Below, one piece after another: positions 8,307 to 41,586 of a stretch of 56,952 nt of DNA. Numbering within the stretch: position 1 is the stretch's first letter; each line of letters begins with the position of its first letter. The DNA comes from Chromatiaceae bacterium. Its GTDB lineage: Bacteria > Pseudomonadota > Gammaproteobacteria > Chromatiales > Chromatiaceae. The translations under genes were made by a program, and so were the position numbers. The DNA lies in contig JBASIS010000047.1 in NCBI GenBank assembly GCA_049654905.1, positions 1 through 56,952 on the forward strand, read 5' to 3'. The notes beneath the pieces are model-generated. The model saw only the letters and a list, made by a program, of their open reading frames with translations, was not told the DNA's origin and did not search any database.

Positions 8307-9287
8307 TTGTCCCAGATACCCGAAACCCTCGACCTCCGGCTCGCGCCCGAGGACAACATCCGTCTCGCCAACCTCACCGGTCAGCTCGACGCCCATCTGC
8401 GCCAGATCGAGCGCCGGCTGGGCATCGAGATCGCCAATCGCGGCCACCTCTTCCGCCTTATTGGCGAGGGCCAAGCGATACGGGCCGGCGAGCAGGTCCT
8501 GGAACGTCTTTATGCCGCGACCGCGGAGGAGGTCCTGACGCCCGAGGCCATTCATCTGCAATTGCAGGCCTCCGGCGTCGAGGCCCTCCTTGAGGATGGG
8601 GACGCCGAGCGCCCGGAACTGGCCGTGCGGCTCAAACGCGCCCTGATCCGCGCTCGCGGGCCGAATCAGCAGGCCTATCTCGATGCGGTGATGCGCCACG
8701 ACATCAACTTTGGTGTTGGCCCCGCCGGGACCGGCAAGACCTATCTCGCCGTCGCCTGCGCCGTGGAGGCCCTGGAGACGGACCGCGTTCGGCGGGTCTT
8801 GCTGGTGCGACCGGCGGTGGAGGCCGGCGAGCGCCTGGGCTTTCTGCCGGGCGACCTGGCCCAGAAGATAGACCCCTATCTGCGCCCCCTCTACGACGCC
8901 CTCTACGAGATGCTGGGTTTCGAGAAGGTGACCCGGCTCATGGAGCGCCATGTCATCGAGGTCGCGCCCCTGGCCTACATGCGCGGGCGCACCCTCAACG
9001 ATGCCTTCATCATTCTGGACGAGGCCCAGAACACCACGCCGGAGCAGATGAAGATGTTCCTGACCCGCATCGGTTTCGGTTCCACGGCCGTTATTACCGG
9101 CGACGTTACCCAGGTGGACCTGCCCCGGGGCCAGACCTCGGGTCTGCGCCAGGGCATCGAGGTCTTGCGGCATGTGGAGGGCATCAGCTTCACCTTCTTC
9201 AATGCCCGTGACGTGGTGCGCCACGCGCTGGTGCAACGCATCGTCAATGCCTATGACGCCTTCGATCGGGGCCTGCCGGCGGAGTAG
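8307..9287 (+). CDS. ybeZ: PhoH-like ATPase YbeZ
   Basis: Walker A GPAGTGKTYLAV, ILDEAQN, conserved position between miaB and ybeY; TTG start. Confidence 0.9.
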   Translation: MSQIPETLDLRLAPEDNIRLANLTGQLDAHLRQIERRLGIEIANRGHLFRLIGEGQAIRAGEQVLERLYAATAEEVLTPEAIHLQLQASGVEALLEDGDAERPELAVRLKRALIRARGPNQQAYLDAVMRHDINFGVGPAGTGKTYLAVACAVEALETDRVRRVLLVRPAVEAGERLGFLPGDLAQKIDPYLRPLYDALYEMLGFEKVTRLMERHVIEVAPLAYMRGRTLNDAFIILDEAQNTTPEQMKMFLTRIGFGSTAVITGDVTQVDLPRGQTSGLRQGIEVLRHVEGISFTFFNARDVVRHALVQRIVNAYDAFDRGLPAE

Positions 9288-9296
9288 GGGTAGGGG

Positions 9297-9755
9297 GTGA
9301 AGATCAAGCTGGCTATTCAGCAGGCCTCCGCCGCGAGCCGGGTGCCGGTTAAGGGGGAGGTGAAGCGATGGGCGGCGGCGGCCTTAAAGGGGCGGCGCAA
9401 GCAGGCTCGTCTCAGCCTGCGCATCCTCGATGAGGCAGAGTCGGCCGCCCTGAATCTGCGCTATCGCGGTAAGGCGGGACCGACCAATGTCCTCTCCTTT
9501 TCCTTCGAGCCCCCACCGGGCCTGCCGGGCCCCCAGCCATTCATCGGCGATCTCGCTATCTGTGCCCCGGTGGTGGAGCGCGAGGCCCTGGAACAGGGCA
9601 AGTCCCTGGAGGCCCACTGGGCCCACCTGGTGGTCCACGGCATCCTGCATCTGCTGGGCCATGACCACCGCGACGAGGCCGAGGCCCAGGAGATGGAGAC
9701 GCTAGAGACCCGTATTATGGAGGAGCTAGGCTTTCCCGCCCCTTACGAGGCGTGA
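9297..9755 (+). CDS. ybeY: Endoribonuclease YbeY (rRNA maturation)
   Basis: Metal-binding motif HGILHLLGHDH; miaB-ybeZ-ybeY synteny; GTG start. Confidence 0.9.
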   Translation: MKIKLAIQQASAASRVPVKGEVKRWAAAALKGRRKQARLSLRILDEAESAALNLRYRGKAGPTNVLSFSFEPPPGLPGPQPFIGDLAICAPVVEREALEQGKSLEAHWAHLVVHGILHLLGHDHRDEAEAQEMETLETRIMEELGFPAPYEA

Positions 9756-9782
9756 GGGGCGAGGCGCGCTGCCGGGCGGAGC

Positions 9783-10673
9783 TCAGCCGTTACACCGGGA
9801 CATGAGGCACTCGATGATGGGCTGGAGGATGATCTCCATGGCGAAGCCCATCTTGCCGCCGGGGACTACCATGCTGTTGCGGCGGGTCATGAAGGAGCCG
9901 TGGATCATGGACAGGAGATAGGGGAAGTCCACATCCCATTTATTCGGATTGCGGAAGCGAATGATGACGAAGCTCTCGTCCGGGGTGGGGATGTCGCGGG
10001 CGATGAAGGGGTTGGAGGTATCGACCGTGGCCACGCGCTGGAAGTTGATATCCGTCAGGGAGAACTGGGGGACAATGGTGGTGATGTAGTCCGGCATGCG
10101 GCGCATGATGGTATCGACGATGGCCTCCGCCGAATAGCCGCGCTCCGCGTTGTCCCGATGAATCTTCTGAATCCACTCCAGGTTGACAATGGGCACCACG
10201 CCTATGCCCAGGTCAACGTGCTTGGCGACGTTATGGTCCTCGGTAATCACCAGGCCATGCAGGCCCTCGTAAAAGAGCAGGTCCGTGCCTTCCGGTAGGT
10301 CCTCGAGGGGGGTGAACTGGCCCGGCTTGAGACTGGTGCCGAGACGGGCATTGAGCTCGACAGCCTCTTCCTCGCTATGGATGTAATACCGTTTCTTGCC
10401 GGCGCCTGACTCGCCATAGGTTCTGAACAGCTCCTCAAGCATGTCGAAGCGGTTGGCCTCGGCGCCAAAGTGACTCAGGTTGCGGTGGGCGGCGGAGGCC
10501 TTGGCCGTTTCCAACTTCATCTCGGCACGGTCGTAACGATGGAAGCTGTCACCCTCAATGATGGCGGGGGTGATACCGTCACGGTAGAAGATGTGTTCGA
10601 AGGCCCGCTTGACAGTGGTCGTACCGGCGCCCGAGGAACCGGTGACCGCGATGACAGGGTGTTGGGTGGACAT
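9783..10673 (-). CDS. prk: Phosphoribulokinase (Calvin-cycle enzyme)
   Basis: MSTQHPVIAVTGSSGAGTTTVKRAFEHIFYRDGI... matches the bacterial PRK N-terminus and P-loop. Start set at ATG (rc) 10673, giving 296 aa; the track N-terminal extension is rejected. Confidence 0.88.
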   Translation of the reverse strand: MSTQHPVIAVTGSSGAGTTTVKRAFEHIFYRDGITPAIIEGDSFHRYDRAEMKLETAKASAAHRNLSHFGAEANRFDMLEELFRTYGESGAGKKRYYIHSEEEAVELNARLGTSLKPGQFTPLEDLPEGTDLLFYEGLHGLVITEDHNVAKHVDLGIGVVPIVNLEWIQKIHRDNAERGYSAEAIVDTIMRRMPDYITTIVPQFSLTDINFQRVATVDTSNPFIARDIPTPDESFVIIRFRNPNKWDVDFPYLLSMIHGSFMTRRNSMVVPGGKMGFAMEIILQPIIECLMSRCNG

Positions 10674-10883
10674 GAAGGTCTCCTCTGTTCTATTGCTCTC
10701 AGGATTATGGGCGCCGGCCACGACCCGCAGGGGTGTCGGCCGAAGGTGAGTGGGTTTAAACCCTGCTTGAAGTTGAAAGGAAGCCCCGCGGTGGCGGACT
10801 TGCGCGCGCGGGGATCTTGAAGTAATTACTAATATACCACGGGGCTCCCCCAAGTCTTGGGAAAAGCGCGGGGGGCTGGCGGG

Positions 10884-13244
10884 TCACGCCACTCCGGTGC
10901 TGGGCATGGGTACCTCGCCAGAGGTCATCAGGCTTTCGTACTCCAGGGCCTGGAGGCGTTCCAGCACCTCGCCGGACTGATCGGTGAGTCGCCGGATGAG
11001 GAGGGTGATCTGGTCACTGGGCTGGCCTTGCTCGACCGCGCGCAAGAGCTCCTGGCCCAGGCGATGCACTTCATTATGGGGGTCTTCGAGGGCATCGAAG
11101 GCGGGCAGACCGGCGAAATACCGACCTTGGTCCTGGAACCACTGGCCGAAACGGCAGCGCCGGGGGTCCATCTCCACTTCCAGCCCCTTGATGGTGTTCC
11201 CGCCCTCCTTGCCGAAGGCCTTGGCAATGGCATAGTCGATGAGCGAACGCCGCCAGTGGATGTGATCGATCTGGGCGATGTGGATCAAACCGGTCGGTAC
11301 GCCGGACCAGCGCTCATCGCGTTTCAGGTAGGTCAGGAAATCCGGGAAGGCCATCGGCCGGCCCAGCCAAAAGCCCTGGGCCTCGGTGCAGCCGGCTTTC
11401 AGCAGGAAGTCAAAGACCTGGCGGCTCTCCACCCCTTCCGCGACTGTCTTGATGCCCAGTTGATGCGCCATCTGAATGCTGGAGCGCACCAGGGTGGTAC
11501 ATTTGTCCGATGTCTCCATGCGCCGGATCAGACCCTGGTCGATCTTGACCGCCGAGAAGGGCCATTGGCTTAGGACCTCAATGGAAGAAAAGCCCGTGCC
11601 GAAGTCGTCCATGGCCAGTCCAATGCCCATGCCCGTCAGTTCGAGAATGTGATCGCGGGTCTTCCCCGAGCTATTGATGACCGAGGATTCGGTTAATTCG
11701 GCCTGCAGCAGGCTGGGGTCGAGCTGGAATTTGGCGATGGCCGTGCGTAGGGCCTTCACCATCTCGTCGGATTCCAGGTTCCAGGCCGTCAGGTTGAAGG
11801 ACATGACCAGGCCCGGGAGTATGTCCTGAATGATGCTCAGGTCGGCCATGAGTCTGGGAAGCATGGCCAGGGTCATGTGCTTGATCAGACCCGATTCAAT
11901 CGCCAGGGGCAGGAAGTCGTCGGGCGGTAGGACCTCTTCATCCGGCTTGACCCAGCGCATCAGGGCCTCGGCGCCCGATACCTTGCCCGTGAGCAGCGAT
12001 ATCTTGGGCTGGTAGTAATAAACGAACTCCTCCCGGGCGAGCGCCTGCTTGATTTCCGCCAGTTGAATGCCAGGGCCAGGGCCAGTGCCTGGGCCGGCCG
12101 GCGCGGGACTGAAATCCGCGGCGATGCTGGTATGGAGTTCGGGTACATAGCCCGTGACGCAATCGCGACCGATCTTCTTGGAGAAGGCCATGGCTACATC
12201 GGCGTTCCTGGCCAACTCCTGCTCGTTTTGGCCATGATCGGGGTAGATGGCGATACCCACGCTCAAGGATACCGATAGCGTCAGGGCGTCCAGGGTGATG
12301 GGTGGCCGGATGGCCTCGCGTACCTTGTTGGCCACCTCGATGGCATGCTCTTGGCTGCCGATATTCGGCAAAAACAGGATGAATTCGTCACCCCCCATGC
12401 GCCCGAGGGTGTCGGAGTTGCGCAGCGTCCGGGAAATCCGCTGGGCGATCTCCCGCAGGACCCCATCGCCGATGGCGTGGCCGTGGTTGTCGTTGATGCG
12501 CTTTAAGCGGTCGACATCCAGAAAAATGAGGGCCAGTCGCTGATGCTGGCGGTGGGCGCTGGCCAGGGCTCGCTCCACCAGGAGGGAGAAGAGGGCCCGA
12601 TTGGGCAGTCCCGTGAGACCGTCATGCTGGGCCATGTGCCGGACACTCTCCTCCATCCCATGCCAGGCCGTGATATCGCGGGTCACGCCATGAATCTCGA
12701 TCGCGCCCGTGGCCGGATTGCGGATGAAATGCATCCGCATCTCGGTCCAGACGAGGGTGCCATCCTGGCGGGACTGGGGTAGCTGTTCCGTGAAGGGCGT
12801 ACGGGCGGAGAGGGTCCCCGCGCGAAAGGCCGCCCTTTTTTCCGCTATTAGGGCCTGGATCCGGGCCCGACCTTCCGGCGTCAGGGCCGCATCCAGGGGC
12901 TCCGCCATGACCTCCTCGGGGGTATAACCTCGCAACCCCAGGATCGAGGGGCTGACATAAAGAAACCGGAGGGTTTCGGCATCCAGGACCCACACCACGT
13001 CGCGCATGGTGTCGCCGAGGGTTTGGAGTTGGCGCTGACTGGCGGCAAGATGGGCTTCAGCCGTCTGGCGTACCGCGCTCTCGGCACCCAGGCGTTCCCT
13101 GGCCGCCCGGAGTTCCTCCTGGAGTTCTTGGACCAAGCGGTTATCCAGCGCCCTGTCCGACGGATGCTGGACCTCGCGAGGTGCCCTGGAACGGGAGAGC
13201 GGGTCGAGGATCCTGCCCAGCAGGGATTTGATGGCTGATTTCAA
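10884..13244 (-). CDS. PAS-GGDEF-EAL signalling protein with C-terminal CZB (chemoreceptor zinc-binding) domain
   Basis: PAS region (VVWVLDAETLRFLYVSPSILGLRGYTPEEV), GGDEF (RMGGDEFILF), EAL (GAEALMRW), C-terminal DHIHW...CRFGQW...HNEVH. The start is uncertain: TTG (rc) at 13244 follows AGGAAG by 8 nt; the track start is 13517. Confidence 0.8.
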   Translation of the reverse strand: MKSAIKSLLGRILDPLSRSRAPREVQHPSDRALDNRLVQELQEELRAARERLGAESAVRQTAEAHLAASQRQLQTLGDTMRDVVWVLDAETLRFLYVSPSILGLRGYTPEEVMAEPLDAALTPEGRARIQALIAEKRAAFRAGTLSARTPFTEQLPQSRQDGTLVWTEMRMHFIRNPATGAIEIHGVTRDITAWHGMEESVRHMAQHDGLTGLPNRALFSLLVERALASAHRQHQRLALIFLDVDRLKRINDNHGHAIGDGVLREIAQRISRTLRNSDTLGRMGGDEFILFLPNIGSQEHAIEVANKVREAIRPPITLDALTLSVSLSVGIAIYPDHGQNEQELARNADVAMAFSKKIGRDCVTGYVPELHTSIAADFSPAPAGPGTGPGPGIQLAEIKQALAREEFVYYYQPKISLLTGKVSGAEALMRWVKPDEEVLPPDDFLPLAIESGLIKHMTLAMLPRLMADLSIIQDILPGLVMSFNLTAWNLESDEMVKALRTAIAKFQLDPSLLQAELTESSVINSSGKTRDHILELTGMGIGLAMDDFGTGFSSIEVLSQWPFSAVKIDQGLIRRMETSDKCTTLVRSSIQMAHQLGIKTVAEGVESRQVFDFLLKAGCTEAQGFWLGRPMAFPDFLTYLKRDERWSGVPTGLIHIAQIDHIHWRRSLIDYAIAKAFGKEGGNTIKGLEVEMDPRRCRFGQWFQDQGRYFAGLPAFDALEDPHNEVHRLGQELLRAVEQGQPSDQITLLIRRLTDQSGEVLERLQALEYESLMTSGEVPMPSTGVA

Positions 13245-15967: not shown

Positions 15968-16882
15968 CTAATTATCGCTAAAATAGTCGGAATCAATCTT
16001 ATGAACCTGGTAGGTAGCAACGGGATTCACGCCTACACCAAAATCGATCATGAGCTTCGCGAGAGTTGCGCCATCAAGCAGAATAATCTTGGAGTCGATG
16101 CGGGATACGAAATCCAAAGCGTCCTTCGTGAAATCAGACGTGGTAATGAAAATACCTTTCCGCGCCCGTTGGCCTTGAAGCGCCCCAGCAAACTTCTGTA
16201 TCTCCGGTCGTCCAATCGTAGCTTCCCATCGCTTCGCCTGGATGTAGATGTTGTCCAGACCGAGGTGGTCTTCCTTGATGATTCCGTCAATGCCTTCGTC
16301 GCCGCTGCGTCCTATGGCCCGGCCTGCGTCCTTCCTGCTTCCACCGTAGCCCATCTTGACGAGAAGTTCGACGACGATCTTCTCGAATAGAGTTGGGTCA
16401 CAACCTCGAATGCTCGATAGAATCTCGCTGGCGAGTTCGGACCGTAGACGTTCATATGCGGATTCGAGGGCTTCATGGGGAGTTTGCCCGAGGGCAAGCT
16501 CGGGCGTATCCGCGCGATCCTCTTCGGTTTTCTCCCGTCGAATACTCTTGAACTGGATGAACTCAGGAAATCGTTCGAGATACTTTTGATTGATTGCGCT
16601 CGGATGTTCTTTGAGAATGTTGCGGCCACGATCAGTTATCTTGAAATGCCCTCTTCTGGGTGAAGATAAGAGCCCAGCTTTCTTCAAATAGGTGCGTGCC
16701 CATCCAATCCGGTTTGTGAAGACCGGTTGTAGACCACTGGGGAGAAGTTCGTTTCGCTCTTCGTCACTAAGAGAGAACCTTTCGGCTAGTGCGGCAATGG
16801 CACCCTTGAGCTGGTACTCGTCTCCGTCTCCTGCGAATCTGAGCAGAGGCAGCATGCAGGATTGATAATCGGGGATGGGCAT
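15968..16882 (-). CDS. mrr: Mrr-type modification-dependent restriction endonuclease
   Basis: Mrr_N winged helix (MPIPDYQSCMLPLLRFAGDG...NRIGWARTYLKKAGLL) and Mrr catalytic core (GDEGIDGIIKEDHLGLDNIYIQAKRW); low-GC context. Confidence 0.85.
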   Translation of the reverse strand: MPIPDYQSCMLPLLRFAGDGDEYQLKGAIAALAERFSLSDEERNELLPSGLQPVFTNRIGWARTYLKKAGLLSSPRRGHFKITDRGRNILKEHPSAINQKYLERFPEFIQFKSIRREKTEEDRADTPELALGQTPHEALESAYERLRSELASEILSSIRGCDPTLFEKIVVELLVKMGYGGSRKDAGRAIGRSGDEGIDGIIKEDHLGLDNIYIQAKRWEATIGRPEIQKFAGALQGQRARKGIFITTSDFTKDALDFVSRIDSKIILLDGATLAKLMIDFGVGVNPVATYQVHKIDSDYFSDN

Positions 16883-32826: not shown

Positions 32827-35800
32827 ATGCCCCGCATTTTCGACAATATCGACCAGACCCTGCTACCGGCCTTGCGGGAGACGCTGACGGTGGGCGAGCG
32901 GGCCGACTTCTGCGTCGGCTATTTCAACCTGCGGGGTTGGCGCTATCTGGCGGATCTCATCGACCGCTGGGCGGGTGGCGAGGGCCACTGCTGCCGGCTC
33001 CTTGTCGGGATGCAGTCCACGCCCTCCGAGGAACTGCGCCAGGCCATGCGTATCCCTCTGGGCGGCGAGTCCTTGGAAGAGAGCCTGGACAATCAGACCG
33101 CCCTGCGCGAGAAGCGCCGGCTCGCCGAGGACTTCCGGCGCCAACTCTGTTTCGGCGCGCCCACCAACGAGGACGAGGCGGCCCTGCGCCAACTTGCTTT
33201 GCAGCTCCATCGGCGCCGGCTGCTGGTCAAGGTCTTCCTGTCCCACCCCCTGCACGCCAAGCTGTATCTCGTCCACCGGCGGGATGCCAACAACCCCATG
33301 ACGGGCTTCGTCGGTAGCAGCAACCTCACCATGGCCGGCCTGGCCAAGCAGGGGGAGCTGAACGTCGATGTGTTGGACCATGATGCCTGTGCCAAGCTGG
33401 CGGATTGGTTCGAGGACCGCTGGCGGGAGCGCTGGTGCCTCGACATCTCCCAGGAACTGGCCGCCATTATCGACGCGAGCTGGGCCGCCGACCGCCTGGT
33501 CCCGCCCTATCACGTCTATCTCAAGATGGCCTATCACCTGGCCCAGGAGGCACGTACCGGACTGCTGGAATTTCGCATCCCGGCCATCTTTGGCGACGCC
33601 CTCTTCGATTTTCAGGTGGCGGCGGTGAAGATTGCCGCCCACCATCTCAACAAGCGCGGTGGCGTTCTCATCGGCGATGTCGTGGGCCTGGGCAAGTCCC
33701 TGATGGCCACCGCCCTGGCCAAGATTTTCGAGGACGACTTCGCCACCGAGACCCTCATTATCTGCCCCAAAAACCTGGTGACCATGTGGGAGGACTATGT
33801 CCACCGCTACCGGCTCCATGCCAAGGTCATGTCCCTGTCCCGGGTCCTGACTGAGCTGCCGGAGCGGACCCGCCGCTACCGGGTGGTGCTGATCGATGAG
33901 TCCCACAATCTGCGCAACAAGGAGGGCAAGCGCTGGCGGACCATCCGCGACTACATTGATCGCAACGACAGCCTGTGCATTCTGCTGTCCGCCACCCCCT
34001 ATAACAAGACCTATCTGGACCTGTCCGCCCAGATCTCGCTCTTCCTCAAGGAGGATGCGGACATCGGCATCCGCCCGGAACGCCAGATCGCTGCCATGGG
34101 TGGCGAGCACGCCTTCGCCGCCCGTCATCAATGCCCGGTCTGTTCCCTGGCCGCCTTCAATAAGAGCGAGGACCCGGACGACTGGCGGGAGCTGATGCGC
34201 CTCTACATGGTGCGCCGCACCCGTGGCTTCATCATGCAGAACTATGCCCAGGAGGATGAGCGGGGGCGTTACCTGATTTTCCCCGATGGCACCAAATCCT
34301 ATTTTCCCCGGCGCCTGCCCCGGAACATCAGCTTCCCTATCCGGGACGAGGACCCCGACGACGCCTACGCCCGCTTCTATTCCGCCCCGGTGGTCAACAC
34401 CATCAACACCCTGATCCTGCCCCGCTATGGCCTGGGCAACTATCTCGCTCCCCAACCGAAACACCCGCCCACCCCCCACCAGGAACGCCTGATCGCCGGC
34501 CTGTCCCGGGCCGGGACCCGCCTGATGGGCTTTTGTCGTACCAACCTCTTCAAGCGCCTGGAGAGCGCTGGCCCTGCCTTTTTGCTCTCCATCGAGCGGC
34601 ACATTCTGCGCAATTTCATCGTCCTGCACGCCATCGATGCGGGGTTGGAAATCCCCCTGGGAACCCAGGCCGCCGCCCTGTTGGACCCCACCTATTACGA
34701 CGGGGATGCCGATGACATCCTGGCGCCGGGGGTCGGGACCGGTGTGGAAGAGGACGACAACGAGGAGGGGATCCCGGATGGGCGGGCAGCGGAAGAGGGT
34801 GCCCGTCACGGAGGTACCCATGAAGCGGGTGGTGACGCCCCCGGACCTGTCGCGACTTCACCCTCGGGCCTGCGCACCGAGGCTGACTTCCGAGACCGCG
34901 CCCGGTTGGTGTATGCCAGCTTCGGCGGTCCTCTCAAGAGCCGCTTCAAGTGGTTGCCTTGCCATCTATTTATCCCAGACCTCGCCCAGGACCTGCTCGC
35001 CGATGCACGCGCCCTGATCGGTGTCCTGGCGACCTGTGGTGATTGGGACCCACGCCGGGATGCCAAGCTGGCGGAGTTGCACCGGCTCATCAGCCAGGTC
35101 CACTCCGAGGAAAAGCTGCTGATCTTCACCCAGTTCGCCGATACGGCGCGATATCTGGCCAGCCAGCTCAGGTTGCGGGGCGTCAAGGCCATTGACCAGG
35201 CCACGGGGCAGAGCGCGGACCCGACGGCACTGGCCTGGCGCTTCGCCCCCGACGCGAACGCCAAGCGCGCTCAAATCCCCAAATCCGCCGAGTTGCGCGT
35301 GCTCATCGCCACCGATGTCCTCTCCGAGGGCCAGAATCTCCAGGACGGCGCCATTGTCGTCAATTACGACTTGCCTTGGGCCATCATCCGCCTCATCCAA
35401 CGCGCCGGCCGCGTGGACCGTATCGGCCAGCGCGCCGACCGCATCCTCTGCTACTCCTTCGTCCCCGCGGACGGCGTCGAGCGTCTCATCCGCCTGCGCC
35501 AGCGCGTCCGCCAGCGTCTGGCCCAGAACGCCGAGGTCGTGGGCTCCGACGAGAGCTTTTTCGAGGATGATCCGGACGATCAGGGTATTCGCGATCTCTA
35601 CACCGAACGGAATGGCATCCTGGATGACGACAGCGACACGGAGGTGGACCTCGCCTCCTTTGCCTATCAGATCTGGAAGAATGCCACCGACGCCGATCCC
35701 AGCCTGGTCGCCCGGATTGAGGCCCTGCCCGATGTTGTTTACGCCACTAAGGCCCATGCCCCGCTCCCCGCCGCGCCCGCGGGCATCCTGGTGTACACCC

Positions 35801-36330
35801 GTACCGCCCAGGGCAACGATGCCCTAGCCTGGATGGACGAAGCCGGTAACCCGGTTACTCAGTCCCAGCTCACCATCCTCAAGGCCGCCGCCTGCCCCGC
35901 CGATACCGAGGCCCTGGCCCGGGGCGAGCACCATCACGCCCTCACCCAGCAGGGACTCAGGCACATCATGGACGAGGAAAAATGCTTTGGGGGCACCCTG
36001 GGTCGGCCCTCTGGCGCCCGCTACAAGACCTATGAGCGGCTCAAACGCCATCGCGCCCACTTGGGCGACCGGCGCGACCTCTTCGTCACCGACGAACATA
36101 TCCGCCAGCTTGACCGGGCTCTGGAGGAGATCTATCGCTACCCCTTGATGCAGAGCGCCATTGATACCCTCAACCGCCAGCTCAAGGCCCGGATTGAAGA
36201 CCACCAGCTCGCCGACCTGATCCTCCGCTTGCGCGAGGATGGGCGCCTCTGCCTGATCAGCGACGAAGAAGCGTCCCATGAGCCCCGGCTGATCTGTACC
36301 ATGGGCCTGACCCGGCGTGACTCAAACTAG
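32827..36330 (+). CDS. PLD-family (single HKD) nuclease domain fused to an SNF2/Rad54-like SF2 ATPase (1167 aa)
   Basis: HKD motif HPLHAKLYLV...GFVGSSNLTMAGL (H143/K145, nt about 33253); SNF2 motif I GDVVGLGKS (about 33685), motif II VLIDESHNLRN (about 33895), LLSATP, helicase-C ATDVLSEGQNLQD and QRAGRVDRIGQ. Confidence 0.88.
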   Translation: MPRIFDNIDQTLLPALRETLTVGERADFCVGYFNLRGWRYLADLIDRWAGGEGHCCRLLVGMQSTPSEELRQAMRIPLGGESLEESLDNQTALREKRRLAEDFRRQLCFGAPTNEDEAALRQLALQLHRRRLLVKVFLSHPLHAKLYLVHRRDANNPMTGFVGSSNLTMAGLAKQGELNVDVLDHDACAKLADWFEDRWRERWCLDISQELAAIIDASWAADRLVPPYHVYLKMAYHLAQEARTGLLEFRIPAIFGDALFDFQVAAVKIAAHHLNKRGGVLIGDVVGLGKSLMATALAKIFEDDFATETLIICPKNLVTMWEDYVHRYRLHAKVMSLSRVLTELPERTRRYRVVLIDESHNLRNKEGKRWRTIRDYIDRNDSLCILLSATPYNKTYLDLSAQISLFLKEDADIGIRPERQIAAMGGEHAFAARHQCPVCSLAAFNKSEDPDDWRELMRLYMVRRTRGFIMQNYAQEDERGRYLIFPDGTKSYFPRRLPRNISFPIRDEDPDDAYARFYSAPVVNTINTLILPRYGLGNYLAPQPKHPPTPHQERLIAGLSRAGTRLMGFCRTNLFKRLESAGPAFLLSIERHILRNFIVLHAIDAGLEIPLGTQAAALLDPTYYDGDADDILAPGVGTGVEEDDNEEGIPDGRAAEEGARHGGTHEAGGDAPGPVATSPSGLRTEADFRDRARLVYASFGGPLKSRFKWLPCHLFIPDLAQDLLADARALIGVLATCGDWDPRRDAKLAELHRLISQVHSEEKLLIFTQFADTARYLASQLRLRGVKAIDQATGQSADPTALAWRFAPDANAKRAQIPKSAELRVLIATDVLSEGQNLQDGAIVVNYDLPWAIIRLIQRAGRVDRIGQRADRILCYSFVPADGVERLIRLRQRVRQRLAQNAEVVGSDESFFEDDPDDQGIRDLYTERNGILDDDSDTEVDLASFAYQIWKNATDADPSLVARIEALPDVVYATKAHAPLPAAPAGILVYTRTAQGNDALAWMDEAGNPVTQSQLTILKAAACPADTEALARGEHHHALTQQGLRHIMDEEKCFGGTLGRPSGARYKTYERLKRHRAHLGDRRDLFVTDEHIRQLDRALEEIYRYPLMQSAIDTLNRQLKARIEDHQLADLILRLREDGRLCLISDEEASHEPRLICTMGLTRRDSN

Positions 36331-36368
36331 AGAGAAGTACCCATGATCATGGATTCTTGCGCATAACC

Positions 36369-39300
36369 ATGGACAAACTCCAGATCGAGCGGGTACGCGA
36401 CCGGCTGCAGGCCTTCGACTTCAAGCGCCTCTTTATCGAGGAGTTGGGTTGGTCCCACGCCCGCGGTGCCAAACCCGTCACCCTAATGATTGCCAACGAA
36501 AGCTGGCAGGCAACGCCCATCGCGGAGCTTTCGGGTGTCGTTGTCTTTCTCCTGGCTGGGCTGCCGGACCGGTCAACCCGGTTAGCCATTCACAAGGCCC
36601 TGTCCGAGCATGCTCATGAAAATCTAGTCATTTTCGTTGACCATGCCTTTGAATCCACTCAAAGCCTTTGGCTCTGGGTGAAGCGCGAGGGCAGCAAACG
36701 CTTCCCGCGCGAGCATCTCTATGTCAGGGGCCAGCCGGGCGATCTTTTTATCTCCAAGCTGTCCGGCATCGTTGTCGATATCAATGAATTGGACGAGCGG
36801 GGTCGCTTTCCCCTCGCCCAACTCGTCGAGCGCATGCGCTCCGCTCTGGATGTGGAGCGCATCACCAAAAAATTCTTCAGGGAATACGATGCGCAGCGAC
36901 TGGCCTTCGTCGAATTGATTCAAGGTATTCCCGACGAGCGCGACCGCCGTTGGTATGCCTCGGTCCTGATGAATCGCCTCATGTTCGTCTGGTTCCTCCA
37001 GCGCAAACACTTTCTGGATGGCGGCAACCCCAACTATCTCTTGGACCGGCTCAGGGACAGCCAGCTCAGCGCCAAGGACGCTTTTTTCAGTGGCTTTCTG
37101 CAAGCCCTGTTTTTCGAGGGCTTCGCCAAGCCACCGGAACAACGTTCCAGTGCTGTCAGGCGGCTGATCGGCGATATCCGCTACCTCAACGGCGGCCTCT
37201 TCATTCCTCACCGCCTGGAGCGCGACTATGGTCCCGCCATTCGCATCCCGGATAGTGCCTTCGAGAACCTGTTTCACCTGTTCGGCGCCTACTCCTGGAA
37301 CCTCAATGACTCGCCCGGAGGCCTGGATAACGAAATAAACCCGGATGTACTCGGCTACATCTTCGAGAAGTACATTAACCAGAAGGCCTTTGGCGCCTAC
37401 TATACCCGCCCGGAGATCACCGAATACCTCTGCGAGCGCACCATCCACCGGCTGATCCTCCAAAAGGTCAATCAGCCCGCCGTGCCGGAGTTAGGACTGC
37501 CCGCCCGCCGCTTTGCCGGTGTGCCCGAGCTGTTGATGGGTCTGGATGCCACCCTTTGCCGGGAGCTGCTGCATACCATTCTGCCCGGTCTCGCCCTCCT
37601 GGACCCGGCCTGCGGGTCCGGCGCCTTCCTGGTCGCCGCCATGAAGACCCTGATCAATATCTACTCGGCGGTGATCGGGCGGATCAAATTCCTCAACGAC
37701 CAAGGACTCAGCGAACAGCTCAAGCGTTGGGAGACCGAACATAAAAGCCTCGCCTACTTCATCAAGCGCAGCATCATTACCGATAACCTGTTCGGCGTGG
37801 ACATCATGGAGGAAGCGACCGAGATCGCCCGATTGCGGCTGTTCCTCGCTCTGGTAGCATCGGCCCAGACCGTCGACCAACTGGAGCCCTTGCCTAATAT
37901 CGACTTCAATATCCTGGCAGGCAACTCACTCATCGGTCTGATCAGGGTCGATGCCGAGCAATTCGACGCGAGCAAGGGTGAGTTCGGGGGACAGATCGAT
38001 CTATTCCGCAAGAGCTACCGCGAAATTCTGGCCGAAAAGAATCGCTCGGTGGACAACTTCCGCCATACCGCATCCTGGGCGGGAGATACGGACCTGTCCT
38101 CGCTCAAGATCAACATCGAAAAACAACGGCAAGAGGCCCAGGCCACCCTTAACGACCTGCTGCTCGATGAGTGGGATCGGGCTGGGATCCGTTTCGAGCA
38201 AGCGACCTGGGATGGGGCCAAGGGCAAGGTCGGCAAGGCCCAGAAACGCAAGCTCAAGATCGAGGACCTGGCAGCGCTGCACCCCTTCCACTGGGGCTTC
38301 GAGTTTGACGAAATACTGCACCAGCGCGGGGGCTTCGACGCCATTATTACCAACCCGCCCTGGGAGATCTTCAAGCCCAACGCCAAGGAGTTTTTTCAGG
38401 AATACTCCGATTTGGTCACTGAGAATAAGATGACCATCAAGGATTTTGAGAAAGAACAGGCCCGTCTTCTCAAAGATCCCAAAATCCGTGCCGTTTGGCT
38501 GGAATACCTGTCGCGCTTCCCACATGTCTCCTCCTGGTTCCGCGCTGCGGCACAATTTAAGCACCAGTCGGCCATCGTCAATGGTAGGAAGACCGGTAGC
38601 GACATCAACCTCTATAAACTCTTTACCGAGCAATGTACCAACCTTCTGCGAGATGGCGGAGGTTGCGGTATTGTCATTCCTTCCGGGATCTACAGCGATC
38701 TTGGGGCCAAGGGCCTGAGGGATTTGCTTTTCTCAAGATGCGCCATCAATGATCTAGTGAGCTTCTCAAATGAGCGGTTCGTTTTTCAGGAGGTTCATCA
38801 CTCAGTAAGATTCTGCTTGCTGTCATTCGAGTACGGCGGTGATACAGATGCATTCAACGCTGTATTTCGAATCAATCCTCGTGAAGCCGTTGGGCCGGCG
38901 GAATTGGATAGTTTTCTACATTCGGCTATCAATCGGATCAGGATTTCAATATCGCTCGTGCGTAAGCTTTCACCAGACTCGCATTCGGTTCGTGAGTTTC
39001 GGTCTGACCTTGATATGCTAGTCGCGGAGAAGATGGTGAAATTCCCGTTGTTTGGACAGCAGGTGGACAGGGGATCGGGTTTACACCTCGCCACTGAGTT
39101 CCATATGACAAACGACAGCGGTCTGTTTAAGACTGAATCCGCCAATGGACGGTTACCGCTTTTTGAAGGGAAGATGATTCATCAGTTCTCCTGTAGTTGG
39201 GGCCATCCAAAATACTGGCTGGACGAAAAAGAGGCACGGGCAGCATTACTTGGACGCATCCCCGATACCGGACAACTGCTTGACTACCAGGGCTATAGAC

Positions 39301-39833
39301 TTGGTTTCCGTGACGTAGCCAGGAATACTGATGCGCGAACGATGATCTGCGCCGTATTACCGAAATGTATTTTTACAAACCACAAGTTGCCTTATGTGCC
39401 GATTGCTCATTTGCAAACGATGTTATTTGTAGCTGCGATCTGGAATAGCTTGGCGTTCGATTACTTGGTCCGCCAGTGCGTCACTGCGAACATTACTTTC
39501 TTCATAGTTTACCAGCTACCTATGCCCCGCTTGACTGAGCAAGATGCAGGCTTTAGCGCCATCATGTCCCGCGCCGCCCGCCTAACCTGCACCACTCCGG
39601 AATTCGATGAACTAGCCCAGCAGGTTGGTATGCAATCCCACCGCGAAAGCGCCACCGACCCCGTAGATCGCGCCAAGCTACGGGCCGAGCTGGACGGCTT
39701 GATTGCATACCGCTATGGCCTCACCGAAGCCGAGTTTAGCCATTTACTGTCCACCTTTCCTCTGGTTTCGGAGCCGGTGAAGATTGCCGCACTTAATGCC
39801 TATCGGGATGTGGAGCGAGGTCTGATTCGATGA
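36369..39833 (+). CDS. Large MmeI/Eco57I-like gamma-class N6-adenine DNA methyltransferase with target-recognition domain
   Basis: Helical spacer RYLNGGLF...GAYYTRPEI, SAM motif I LLDPACGSGAFLV (about 37602), FGVDIMEEATEIARLRLFL, NILAGNSLIG, motif IV NPPW (38352-38363), C-terminal LDGLIAYRYGLTEAEFSHLL. Start is ATG 36369 or TTG 36357. Confidence 0.88.
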   Translation: MDKLQIERVRDRLQAFDFKRLFIEELGWSHARGAKPVTLMIANESWQATPIAELSGVVVFLLAGLPDRSTRLAIHKALSEHAHENLVIFVDHAFESTQSLWLWVKREGSKRFPREHLYVRGQPGDLFISKLSGIVVDINELDERGRFPLAQLVERMRSALDVERITKKFFREYDAQRLAFVELIQGIPDERDRRWYASVLMNRLMFVWFLQRKHFLDGGNPNYLLDRLRDSQLSAKDAFFSGFLQALFFEGFAKPPEQRSSAVRRLIGDIRYLNGGLFIPHRLERDYGPAIRIPDSAFENLFHLFGAYSWNLNDSPGGLDNEINPDVLGYIFEKYINQKAFGAYYTRPEITEYLCERTIHRLILQKVNQPAVPELGLPARRFAGVPELLMGLDATLCRELLHTILPGLALLDPACGSGAFLVAAMKTLINIYSAVIGRIKFLNDQGLSEQLKRWETEHKSLAYFIKRSIITDNLFGVDIMEEATEIARLRLFLALVASAQTVDQLEPLPNIDFNILAGNSLIGLIRVDAEQFDASKGEFGGQIDLFRKSYREILAEKNRSVDNFRHTASWAGDTDLSSLKINIEKQRQEAQATLNDLLLDEWDRAGIRFEQATWDGAKGKVGKAQKRKLKIEDLAALHPFHWGFEFDEILHQRGGFDAIITNPPWEIFKPNAKEFFQEYSDLVTENKMTIKDFEKEQARLLKDPKIRAVWLEYLSRFPHVSSWFRAAAQFKHQSAIVNGRKTGSDINLYKLFTEQCTNLLRDGGGCGIVIPSGIYSDLGAKGLRDLLFSRCAINDLVSFSNERFVFQEVHHSVRFCLLSFEYGGDTDAFNAVFRINPREAVGPAELDSFLHSAINRIRISISLVRKLSPDSHSVREFRSDLDMLVAEKMVKFPLFGQQVDRGSGLHLATEFHMTNDSGLFKTESANGRLPLFEGKMIHQFSCSWGHPKYWLDEKEARAALLGRIPDTGQLLDYQGYRLGFRDVARNTDARTMICAVLPKCIFTNHKLPYVPIAHLQTMLFVAAIWNSLAFDYLVRQCVTANITFFIVYQLPMPRLTEQDAGFSAIMSRAARLTCTTPEFDELAQQVGMQSHRESATDPVDRAKLRAELDGLIAYRYGLTEAEFSHLLSTFPLVSEPVKIAALNAYRDVERGLIR

Positions 39834-40954
39834 GGTTGCAATCCGTCCGCATACATAACTTCAAGGCCATCGTCGATAGCAAGGTCGTTCGGCTCGGCCC
39901 GCTGACCGCCTTTGTCGGCCAGAATGGTGCTGGTAAATCCAGCCTGATCGAGGCCTTGGAGACCTATCAGGCCATCGTTCGGGACGGCCTGGATCTCGCG
40001 ATGCAGCGCTGGCTTGGCATTGAGCATGCCCGCCACAAGGGCCAGGAGACCAAGGAGCGCCTGGGCCAGCCGGTCAATCCGATCAGCTTCGAGTTGAGGC
40101 TTGGCTTGTCGCCGCGCCGGGTCTCGCGGTTGTCTATGTCGGTCAGCAACGACCCGGCTTTCAACCATATCTTCATCTCGGACGAACGTCTCACCTTCCA
40201 GGACGGGACCTTCGTCGGGCGGGACCCGATAGGCGCGAGCCAGACCTATGGCAGGGGCCGCTCAATACTGACTGCGCCCATGGCCGATGCCAGGGATCTA
40301 GCCGAGCATGTCCTCAACTGGCAGTTCCTGGCCCTAAGCCCCGAGCGCATGGGGCTTCCCGTTCCCCAGCAACGGACCGGCGGCGGTGTGCGGTTGGCCC
40401 GGGATGGCTCGAACGTCGCCGACTTCCTTCTCGATCTGCGCCGGCGGGATCAGAACGCCTTTGACGGCATCGTCGCAACCATGGGTTATGTGTTGCCCTA
40501 TGCCAAGGACCTCCAAACCTCTCTGACGACAGAGATCGAGCGCAAGGCCTGGCTGCAACTGACCGAGGCCGATTTCAAGGTCCCCGGCTGGATGCTGTCC
40601 ACGGGTACCCTGCGCCTGCTGGCCCTGTTGGCCCTGCTGCGTCACCCCAAGCCGCCACCCTTGATCCTGGTGGAGGAGCTTGAGAATGGCCTGGACCCAC
40701 GGAGCATGCACCTGCTGGTGGAGGAAATTCGCAACGCGGTGCTGGACGGAGTGACTCAGGTGATCCTGACGACCCATTCACCCTATCTCTTGGACCTGCT
40801 GACGCTCGATCACCTGGTGCTGGTGGAGCGTGACGGGAGTGGCGCACCGCGCTTCCGGCGTCCCGCGAATGATGCATCCCTGGCGAATTGGGCCGGGCGG
40901 TTCGCCCCAGGGAAGCTCTATACCATGGGTAGCCTCTCGGGGAGTGGTGCATGA
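39830..40954 (+). CDS. ABC-type (AAA_15/AAA_21-like) ATPase
   Basis: MRLQSVRIHNFKAIVDS...LTAFVGQNGAGKSSLIEAL (Walker A, K36), LILVEELENGLDP (Walker B), TTHSPYLL (H-loop). ATG overlaps the methyltransferase TGA (ATGA at 39830-39833). Confidence 0.85.
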   Translation: MRLQSVRIHNFKAIVDSKVVRLGPLTAFVGQNGAGKSSLIEALETYQAIVRDGLDLAMQRWLGIEHARHKGQETKERLGQPVNPISFELRLGLSPRRVSRLSMSVSNDPAFNHIFISDERLTFQDGTFVGRDPIGASQTYGRGRSILTAPMADARDLAEHVLNWQFLALSPERMGLPVPQQRTGGGVRLARDGSNVADFLLDLRRRDQNAFDGIVATMGYVLPYAKDLQTSLTTEIERKAWLQLTEADFKVPGWMLSTGTLRLLALLALLRHPKPPPLILVEELENGLDPRSMHLLVEEIRNAVLDGVTQVILTTHSPYLLDLLTLDHLVLVERDGSGAPRFRRPANDASLANWAGRFAPGKLYTMGSLSGSGA

Positions 40955-41556
40955 AGGTCGGCTTTGTGTTCGAGTGTGGTCCCAAGGGTGCCGACGTGCA
41001 GGTGTGCGAATATCTGGCCATGGCAATCCGCTCGGGGATTGTTCCCGTGTCGCGCACGCTGGACAATAAAGCCAATCTGCTGAGAGATGCTGGCCGGGTG
41101 GCCGCGGCGCTACTGGCCGACGGCTGCGAGCGGGTGCTCATCGTCTGGGATTTGCGTCCGGCCTGGCCGGACAAGAAAGCCAAACCCTGTCGCCACGACG
41201 AGCGCGCGGCGATGCTTAAAGCCCTTGAAGACGCGGGAGTCGCCGATGTCCCGGTCTTTTTGGTCTGCGTCGAGCAGGAGTTGGAAAGCTGGCTGTTGAC
41301 GGATGAGACAAAGCTCGCGGCCTATCTATCGACACCGGCGCACCCATTGATCGTGCCCGGGGTGCGACAGCCGGACCGTGTCCCGAACCCCAAGGCCTTG
41401 ATGATGAATTACTTCAGGGCCGCACGTGGCTGGCGCTACGAGGACCGGACCCACGCCATCCGGGTTCTCGGTGCTGGCGCTTTGGACCTGAAGAAGCTGA
41501 GACGCTCGGCCAGTTTCGCCCGATTCGAGTCCAAGCTCACCGAGGATTTTCGCTGA
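40951..41556 (+). CDS. DUF4276 family protein (predicted Toprim-like)
   Basis: MKVGFVFECGPKG (Toprim-like Glu), VLIVWDLRPAW, VCVEQELESWLL. ATG overlaps the ATPase TGA (ATGA at 40951-40954). Family call from motif memory. Confidence 0.65.
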   Translation: MKVGFVFECGPKGADVQVCEYLAMAIRSGIVPVSRTLDNKANLLRDAGRVAAALLADGCERVLIVWDLRPAWPDKKAKPCRHDERAAMLKALEDAGVADVPVFLVCVEQELESWLLTDETKLAAYLSTPAHPLIVPGVRQPDRVPNPKALMMNYFRAARGWRYEDRTHAIRVLGAGALDLKKLRRSASFARFESKLTEDFR

Positions 41557-41586
41557 AGCCTGGAAAATATCTGGAGATCACCCCCC

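Follow-up and report, generated by a model that had tools for sequence, protein, structure and literature searches.

What is an ABC ATPase gene followed by a small DUF4276 gene doing at the 3' end of an operon that otherwise has the look of a restriction-modification (R-M) system? The question arises from a 56,952-nucleotide stretch of DNA of a Chromatiaceae bacterium (GenBank assembly GCA_049654905.1, contig JBASIS010000047.1, positions 1 to 56,952 of the forward strand; the window in what follows), in which four co-directional open reading frames (ORFs) on the + strand, here named g1 to g4, run from 32827 to 41556 and encode a PLD-SNF2 helicase, an N6-adenine (N6A) DNA methyltransferase (MTase), an ABC ATPase and a DUF4276 protein. 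An initial annotation, made from the sequence alone, had described the last two as a split OLD/PARIS-type module coupled to an R-M-like module. We find that the pair is a member of the catalogued candidate family HEC-01 (Hma-embedded candidate 01) and that the four-gene operon is conserved across at least six bacterial phyla. The explanation we favour is that g3-g4 is a HEC-01-type module and the stable partner of one MTase lineage in a four-gene methylation-based restriction operon; that the pair acts as a MADS-like, MTase-coupled component of the restriction arm we put at a probability of roughly 0.4.

A four-gene operon tied to one methyltransferase lineage

Gene g3 (39830-40954, + strand) encodes a protein of 374 amino acids (aa) that profiles and motifs assign to the AAA_15/AAA_21 (OLD/Rad50-like) group of ABC ATPases and to the HEC-01A type. 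Pfam AAA_21 matches over its whole length (3.2e-28, 100 bits), and AAA_15 and SMC_N match as well. The Walker A, Walker B and H-loop that had been read from the sequence are all present, together with a Q-loop and a signature, and none of these motifs varies across 14 relatives with identities as low as 34%: Walker A G30-x-N-G-x-G-K36-S-S, Q-loop W164-Q165, signature S257-x-G259, Walker B/D-loop E283-x-E285-N-G-L-D289 and H-loop T-T-H316-S. The best PADLOC match is HEC-01A (4.5e-44), with residues 2-371 aligned to profile positions 5-360 of 363, and the best NCBIfam match is MAD3 (114.1 bits, 8.9e-33; equivalog cut-off 420).

Gene g4 (40951-41556, + strand) encodes a DUF4276 protein of 201 aa and of the HEC-01B type, a putative Toprim-like nuclease by its profiles and AlphaFold (AF2) model. 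Recognition of the small protein as DUF4276 was right: it scores 33.8 bits against Pfam DUF4276 (PF14103), above the curated cut-off of 30.2, over residues 29-196, a span that leaves out the N-terminal strand carrying E8, and all 30 close homologues scanned match too. Its PADLOC matches are to HEC-01B only (eight models, best 2.1e-8); an HEC-01A gene with an adjacent HEC-01B gene, as here, is what PADLOC calls HEC-01. The family is a small clade of 317 cluster representatives at E <= 1e-3 (235 at E <= 1e-10) among 1.84 billion, with no relatives on viral contigs in IMG/VR. Given the long ORFs, the strong profile matches and these 317 representatives, g3 and g4 are not chance features.

The two genes are joined to each other and to g2 by overlapping codons read directly from the sequence. 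The ATGA that the initial annotation had placed between g3 and g4 lies at 40951-40954 (+ strand), where g3 stops and g4 starts, and a second one at 39830-39833 (+ strand) holds the g2 stop and the g3 start; the corresponding -4 bp junctions recur in about 24 and about 20 related loci, respectively. A consensus scan for an internal promoter or terminator between g2 and g3-g4 gave no more hits than shuffled sequence.

A forward survey anchored on g4, with one genome per species and tblastn searches with g1-g4, gave 45 related loci (numbered L001 and so on), of which the 23 with at least about 9 kb of upstream DNA serve as the denominator for counts. The order PLD-SNF2 helicase, N6A MTase, ATPase, DUF4276 is found in 21 of the 23, and the 4-bp overlaps are usually retained; the proposed coupling to an R-M-like module is thus both tight and conserved. 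The exceptions of the survey are a stand-alone g3-g4 pair (L022) and a fragment (L029). Loci with the four-gene order come from Gamma-, Beta- and Deltaproteobacteria, Deinococcota, Chthonomonadales and Bacteroidota, the four proteins of the Bacteroidota operons being only 24-35% identical to those of the window. The same operon is carried by two cyanobacterial plasmids (L131 468-9301, from Anabaena pANACY.05, NC_020056.1, at 11.3-20.2 kb; L132 1819-10609, from AP018277.1), adjoining integrase/transposase genes in both, and is annotated there by PGAP in generic terms ('helicase-related protein', 'DNA methyltransferase', 'ATP-binding protein', 'DUF4276 family protein'). In the proteobacterial loci, conservation is higher for g3 and g4 than for g1 and g2. 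Small genes are inserted at the g1/g2 or g2/g3 junctions of some loci; by eye they include a VapBC-type pair (L027, 438-1090) and DUF559-like, DUF1016-like and Schlafen/AlbA-like genes.

A reverse survey used an alignment of g1 orthologues and covered 80 metagenome loci with g1 at 42-73% identity, about 27 of them with enough downstream DNA to be informative. Outside the few loci that carry g3 and g4, the MTase found there is of similar size and has the same Pfam domains (Eco57I, MmeI_Mtase), and it resembles g2 mainly in the first ~500 residues. In 16 loci the MTase is followed by a small DprA/Smf-like protein (DNA_processg_A, 155-253 aa). These sister systems (L046, L048, L056, L057, L061, L076, L078, L084, L090, L099, L105, L112, L113, L115, L116 and L124) combine a PLD-SNF2 helicase, an Eco57I MTase that is PglX-like and here called type B, and the DprA-like protein in a three-gene arrangement. 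The literature searched contains no named system for this core; PsyrTA, in which a DprA-like antitoxin accompanies a RecQ-type helicase toxin, may provide an analogy to these sister systems. The slot behind the MTase, often before the DprA-like gene, is a cargo hotspot with Pfam matches to Fic, Schlafen AlbA_2, DUF4258, DarT with Macro, GmrSD, DUF3800 and UvrD-like helicase (L056 8114-9169, L124 16777-18294, L076 17775-18086, L114 15140-16829, L068 9222-11279, L100 16805-17590, L084 17169-19745).

Trees of g1 and g2 tell what the pair travels with. Both are unbootstrapped neighbour-joining trees, and the close relationships cited from them are backed by high pairwise identities. In the g1 tree, pair-carrying loci are scattered among loci that have only the DprA-like gene, one of which (L076) falls within the window's own g1 clade at more than 70% identity. 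The g2 tree, on the other hand, is clean: the pair-carrying loci all lie in clades that we call type A, and the DprA-only or pair-less loci form a separate type-B clade. Over g2 residues 600-1158, the MTases of pair-carrying loci are 40-72% identical to that of the window, as against 4-20% for type B, and the pair occurs in none of about 24 observable type-B loci. This contrast between a scattered g1 tree and a clean g2 tree indicates that the co-inherited block is type-A g2 with g3 and g4, and that g1 is exchangeable. Two type-A loci depart from the pattern. L044 is eroded and keeps g3/g4 remnants. L054 has neither gene: its 1402-aa type-A MTase (8561-12769, - strand), convergent with g1, ends in a fused Schlafen AlbA_2 domain at the place where g3 and g4 would otherwise come. 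Among the type-A MTases seen, no other lacks the pair.

The type-A MTase of the window, g2 (36357-39833, + strand), is a gamma-class N6-adenine DNA MTase plus specificity subunit of 1158 aa (Pfam Eco57I and MmeI_Mtase), with an Eco57I/MmeI-type core and an Alw26I/MAD2-like C-terminal half. Motif I (D416-P-x-x-G-S-G-A-F) and motif IV (N666-P-P) are conserved. It matches the PADLOC model REase_MTase_IIG at 1.3e-114 and, below their cut-offs, the NCBIfam Alw26I-family model (76.9 bits) and MAD2 (46.6 bits; cut-off 720). The two MTase types differ in their model matches: those of type A, in Proteobacteria, Deinococcota and Cyanobacteria, match both the Alw26I-family model and MAD2, the latter in the post-catalytic region, whereas type-B enzymes touch MAD2 only at the S-adenosylmethionine-binding motif.

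Within the C-terminal half, residues ~790-1050 (38733-39506, + strand) form a putative target-recognition region that is replaced between close relatives. At the nucleotide level the window and L126 are 82.6% identical up to 38732, have no match over 38733-39506 and are 92% identical from 39507 onwards, and their g3 and g4 proteins are 96-98% identical. The unmatched stretch, framed by flanks of 83-92% identity, is probably an exchanged target-recognition region, and it coincides with a dip in GC content. The dip lies inside the operon block, with GC at 0.53 over 38-40 kb and ~0.65 in the flanks.

The likely motor-nuclease, the Toprim question and the surroundings

The first gene, g1 (32827-36330, + strand), encodes a fusion, 1167 aa long, of a PLD (HKD) nuclease with an SNF2-type SF2 helicase/translocase (Pfam PLDc_2, SNF2-rel_dom, Helicase_C), and is likely the motor-nuclease of the operon. 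In 12 orthologues, down to 21% identity, the nuclease motifs H143-x-K145 and G163-S-S-N166 are invariant, as are helicase motifs I (G287-L-G-K290), II (D357-E-x-H360) and VI (Q858-R-x-G-R862). The best PADLOC match is 'C3a139 HKD+Snf2' (2.8e-44), with DrmD-like models ranking below. Two further models touch only the C-terminal part of the helicase: HmaA, confined to the helicase C-terminal domain (8e-19), and the phospholipase-D anti-phage model NF042964 of NCBIfam, which we take to be the MtsD family (126.5 bits, cut-off 1100).

A nuclease could also reside in g2, given its match to the type IIG model, a class in which nuclease and MTase share one polypeptide. Yet the N-terminal domain of g2 has no conserved acidic or lysine residue: in a 66-sequence alignment, the earliest position to reach the conservation thresholds is F93, an AD-specific one, and the first position in common with type B does not come before F173. 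This makes a PD-(D/E)xK site unlikely and the PLD domain of g1 the likelier candidate, so that the module's nuclease is most likely, as judged from these conservation patterns, the PLD domain.

The next question is how far g4 resembles a Toprim enzyme. The motifs FVFECG, VWDL and ELESWLL quoted in the initial annotation lie at residues 5-10, 65-68 and 110-116, and they contain most of the residues that are invariant in 46 diverse representatives of 31-62% identity (E8, W66, D67, P70, E112 and K148). The AF2 model, built with 30 homologues, has a predicted local distance difference test score (pLDDT) of 89 and a predicted template-modelling (TM) score (pTM) of 0.85, and shows a four-stranded beta-alpha-beta-alpha-beta-alpha-beta core in which E8 comes right after strand 1 (residues 2-7), D67 after strand 3 and E112 after strand 4. 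The glutamate that ends strand 1 of a Toprim fold thus has its counterpart in the invariant E8. The DxD motif does not: a single aspartate, D67, stands in W66-D67-x-x-P70, position 69 being R, M, F or Y, and E112 might substitute for the missing second one. Foldseek found nothing in the PDB at E <= 1e-3 and no Toprim entry among the top 50, a profile search of PDB sequences gave no match, and no DUF4435 or Toprim Pfam match appeared at E <= 10 in g4 and 29 homologues. Against BFVD, the sole coherent match was weak, to an RloB-like protein (probability 0.96, TM-score 0.41-0.43, E 0.028). The Menshen study places both DUF4276, naming Mad4, and RloB in the Toprim superfamily (PMC12065111). The model thus partly supports membership of g4: the topology and the glutamate agree with the label Toprim-like given at first, but the DxD is cut to one aspartate and no significant Toprim structure was matched. 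We also considered a four-cysteine metal site, as C9, C59, C80 and C106 (40975-41268) are invariant in a 16-sequence cross-phylum alignment; it was dropped, since only C59 stays conserved at 90% or more in the 46 diverse representatives, which makes a general structural metal site unlikely.

The operon forms a solitary island of ~8.8 kb, with no larger defence island around it in the flank annotation. Upstream are the housekeeping genes nadC and a DUF1538 membrane protein, and downstream an ABM monooxygenase, an Fe-ADH and an RND efflux pump. The right-hand end of the horizontally acquired block lies at 41557-41559: beyond this point, 3 nt past the g4 stop, the two closest relatives are no longer homologous to the window. 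One of them, L001 (a Chromatiaceae metagenome-assembled genome), is 95.8% identical to the window over 39881-41559; the other, L126 (on a 1.69-Mb contig), is 92% identical. All three differ in what follows: the ABM gene in the window, a 91-aa ORF and a DprA-like gene, absent from the window, in L001 (1677-2764), and a 124-aa ORF and UDP-glucose dehydrogenase in L126 (10607-11123).

Elsewhere in the window, a Type IV restriction endonuclease of 304 aa with Mrr_N and Mrr_cat domains (15968-16882, - strand) is encoded in another patch of low GC content (0.54), flanked by a BT1-family transporter and an alanine racemase; it is the second solitary defence gene of the window.

Relatives among known systems

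The closest catalogued relative of the pair is HEC-01, an ABC ATPase with a TOPRIM-like protein discovered embedded in Hma by Payne et al., who describe independent systems embedded in Hma, BREX, DISARM and type I R-M loci and who found that HEC-01 expressed alone gave no protection against the coliphage panel used (bioRxiv 10.1101/2024.01.29.577857). In Halomonas, every hma operon is reported to contain an inserted AAA_21 ATPase with an unannotated partner gene (PMC11232893). The likeness to g3-g4 lies in an ABC ATPase (AAA_15/21) and DUF4276/TOPRIM-like pair inside helicase-methylase operons. The hosts differ, however. Hma is defined by an m5C/DUF1156 MTase (HmaB), a DUF499 ATPase (HmaC) and a DUF3883 Snf2 helicase (HmaA), whereas the window operon has a PLD-SNF2 helicase and an Eco57I/Alw26I-type N6A MTase, with the pair at the 3' end overlapping the MTase stop. 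Membership of Hma itself was rejected, g2 being an N6A enzyme.

The second relative is MADS (methylation-associated defence system), where the order is N6A MTase, then Mad3, an ATPase of the AAA_15/21 type, and then Mad4, a DUF4276 protein, as in g2-g3-g4. Maestri et al. identify mad2 as the MTase; deletion of mad3 or of mad4 abolishes defence, methylated plasmids were made in the mad3 deletion strain, and removal of mad5 was possible only in combination with loss of mad2 or mad3 (bioRxiv 10.1101/2023.03.30.534895). The loss of defence on deleting either gene, together with methylation in the absence of mad3, places the MADS ATPase and DUF4276 pair in the restriction arm. MADS is nonetheless a larger system of eight genes, including a kinase, with MAD6-8 mandatory in its authors' detection model, as against four genes in the window; the part of its description that lists domains (kinase, specificity subunit, methylase) names no PLD-SNF2 helicase.

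A third system, MANTIS (formerly Gao_RL or Gao_29), resembles the operon in layout: a methylation-based set of four genes with a PLD-SF2 nuclease, an N6A MTase responsible for specificity, another ATPase and a small partner (bioRxiv 10.64898/2026.09.23.753747). There the DUF499 ATPase and the DUF3870 partner are both required for methylation and restriction, and restriction needs all four genes (same preprint). The components and their order differ, since MtsA is an ORC/Cdc6-clade AAA+ protein of the DUF499 family and MtsB a DUF3870 protein, in place of an ABC ATPase and DUF4276. Membership was rejected: g3 and g4 match neither DUF499 nor DUF3870, and g1 falls far below the NF042964 cut-off.

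The comparison with OLD nucleases and PARIS, on which the first description of the pair was built, holds in part. P2 Old and Gabija GajA join an OLD/Rad50-like ABC ATPase to a Toprim-type nuclease, and PARIS, which anti-restriction proteins such as Ocr activate, does so in two genes, as here. Among solved structures, the best sequence match of g3, in its N-terminal part, is the Thermus OLD nuclease 6P74 (4.7e-8), and a fold search agrees in placing 6P74 at the top (E 1.9e-7), followed by Rad50, a retron-associated ATPase, GajA, PtuA and PARIS AriA, the PARIS chains 8UX9 and 8V47 ranking 11-13; with a low-confidence g3 model (pLDDT 60) this ranking is suggestive only. AriA models match g3 (3.4e-28 and 2.6e-20) over residues and a profile span identical to those of the generic AAA_21 match, and more weakly than HEC-01A. 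AriA, however, is a protein of 53-55 kDa, longer than g3, and the effector AriB is a DUF4435 Toprim protein, whereas g4 lacks a DUF4435 or OLD-Toprim match as well as the second Asp of DxD. PARIS is known from phages and satellites, a setting from which g4 relatives are missing in IMG/VR. PARIS membership was rejected on these domain grounds: g4 has no DUF4435 match and no AriB model among its PADLOC matches, and HEC-01A/B match best. What stands of the split-module description is therefore an OLD/Rad50-like ABC ATPase with a DUF4276 partner, outside the PARIS family. OLD-family classes 1-3 do not apply either, as they require a single polypeptide and g3 and g4 are separate ORFs with a 4-bp overlap.

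RloA/RloB, PrrC and RloC resemble the pair as ATPase-linked modules within R-M operons, RloB-like being also the weak structural match of g4. PrrC and RloC are single-chain anticodon nucleases, in which they differ from g3-g4, and the host R-M type is another one.

Restriction component, guard or cargo

How might the four proteins work together? From domain content and conservation, g2 would read a short target through its exchangeable recognition region and methylate host DNA, and g1 would translocate by ATP-driven action of its SNF2 motor and cleave unmodified foreign sites with its PLD nuclease. The overlapping stop and start codons would keep g3 and g4 in fixed proportion to g2, on whose type-A-specific C-terminal half they are proposed to assemble. 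By analogy with Mad3 and Mad4, the resulting ATPase-DUF4276 complex would serve restriction and not methylation, either licensing cleavage in an ATP-dependent manner or acting as a second, metal-dependent nuclease through E8, D67 and E112.

This MTase-coupled role in restriction is favoured because the pair is linked to one MTase lineage across phyla, the gene overlaps are kept, the MADS genetics point to the restriction arm and HEC-01 fails when expressed alone. We also count in its favour the conserved catalytic motifs of g1, g3 and g4, the match of type-A enzymes from three phyla to the post-catalytic region of MAD2, and the precedent of MANTIS, where a PLD-helicase and MTase can rely on a further ATPase with a small partner.

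Several observations pull the other way. Only three of the ~27 informative g1-anchored loci (L079, L080, L083) contain g3 and g4, so the helicase-MTase architecture does not generally need the pair. The slot behind the MTase is filled elsewhere by toxin or abortive-infection cargo (DarT with Macro, Fic, GmrSD, Schlafen), and in L001, L010, L019 and L035, as well as L005 with a DprA fragment, the pair sits between the MTase and DprA-like genes much as embedded cargo would. The pair also persists alone (L022), beside a frameshifted C-terminal remnant of g1 (L126; residues 927-1167, L126 4564-5287; g2, g3 and g4 intact) or next to a g2 split into three ORFs (L021; g1, g3 and g4 intact). The Bacteroidota type-A MTase has no MAD2 match, the MADS equivalog scores of both g3 (114.1 against 420 bits) and g2 (46.6 against 720) fall far short, and MAD6, MAD7 and MAD8 are absent, the four-gene operon and its housekeeping flanks leaving no room for them; the analogy to MADS is therefore one of distant homology.

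The pairless cores, the cargo slot and the stand-alone or orphaned pairs keep two other explanations alive. The stronger, tentative and somewhat less likely than an MTase-coupled role in restriction, is an anti-anti-restriction guard in the manner of PARIS, PrrC or RloC, in which the ATPase would sense an anti-restriction protein or failure of g1/g2 and free the DUF4276 nuclease to act on DNA or RNA (for example tRNA), aborting infection. Such a guard would suit the placement of g3 in the same OLD/Rad50-like ABC group as AriA, GajA and PtuA, the assignment of DUF4276 to the Toprim superfamily by two groups, a helicase-MTase core that is widespread without the pair and a slot that elsewhere holds toxin-type cargo. 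PrrC, almost exclusively embedded in type I R-M loci, shows a similar lineage-specific link to its R-M host, and the near-perfect co-occurrence with one MTase lineage is compatible with an integral partner and with a partner-bound guard alike. In a study of BREX diversity, OLD-ABC-linked nucleases, chiefly TOPRIM-linked, were reported from at least 1242 taxa of BREX-like loci and proposed as backup suicidal effectors (PMC12839542); the general hypothesis of such a guard has already appeared in print, there and in the work of Payne et al. (bioRxiv 10.1101/2024.01.29.577857). On the other side, the closest tested relatives, mad3 and mad4, are required for primary MADS defence, HEC-01 alone did not defend against the coliphage panel, g4 has neither viral-contig relatives of the kind known for PARIS nor a DUF4435 match, and, as a weak argument, the greater conservation of g3/g4 over g1/g2 in proteobacteria is unlike a fast-evolving trigger sensor. 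Intact pairs with a broken or missing g1 or g2 (L126, L021, L022) oppose a masked guard of the PrrC type, toxic on loss of its R-M partner; they do not speak against a PARIS-style guard that senses a trigger.

Less probable still is that the pair is autonomous abortive-infection cargo, a self-contained HEC-01 embedded at the 3' end of the operon that shares its promoter and mobility with no functional cross-talk. Payne et al. describe just such embedding of independent systems, the pair stands alone in L022 and sits between MTase and DprA-like genes in four loci, several small selfish genes occupy other junctions of the same operon, and homology to the close relatives breaks exactly past g4. 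Random cargo, however, is not expected to follow one MTase lineage over six phyla while the helicase swaps, to keep its 4-bp overlap with the MTase stop in ~20 loci or to be missing from all ~24 observable type-B loci, and the failure of HEC-01 to defend alone sits poorly with autonomy. A loader or activator like MtsA/MtsB, which would place g2 on DNA and switch on methylation and hence target recognition for restriction, is the least likely of all: the shared four-gene layout, the MANTIS precedent of a PLD-SF2 nuclease and N6A MTase needing an ATPase and a small co-regulator for both activities, and the tie to one MTase lineage would suit it, but MtsA and MtsB are unrelated to g3 and g4, MADS still methylates without its ABC ATPase Mad3, and the E8/D67/E112 set of g4 suggests an enzyme and not a passive co-regulator.

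The coupled restriction role can be taken one step further, in a version that we regard as speculative. The type-A MTase, the ABC ATPase and the DUF4276 protein may form an obligate complex that, with an interchangeable PLD-SNF2 motor-nuclease, would constitute a distinct, unnamed four-gene minimal MADS-like family. In it the MTase would guide the ATPase and a non-canonical Toprim-like enzyme, with E/D/E in place of E/DxD, to unmodified DNA, and a DprA-like protein would take the equivalent position in the three-gene sister systems.

The link of such pairs to methylation-based systems is already known in general terms. The literature searched contains no account or name of this four-gene operon as a conserved unit, a prior sketch in Krishnan et al. 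2020 (NAR 48:10045) being possible, and no description of the rule that the pair follows one MTase lineage while the helicase swaps. The HEC-01 and Mad3/Mad4 pairs are catalogued, and the operon family offers them a compact four-gene setting that cultured strains as well as small plasmids possess (for example Anabaena pANACY.05, L023 of Hydrogenophaga sp. MI9 and Flavobacterium cyanobacteriorum TH021). Whether such a pair is an integral restriction component or an anti-restriction guard is a question that now covers more than 1000 BREX-like loci. For the family described here, the comparative data predict that the pair acts through one MTase lineage and its C-terminal half, and not through the helicase, and the sister systems with a DprA-like gene or swappable cargo in the same slot amount to a natural experiment on the gain of accessory modules.

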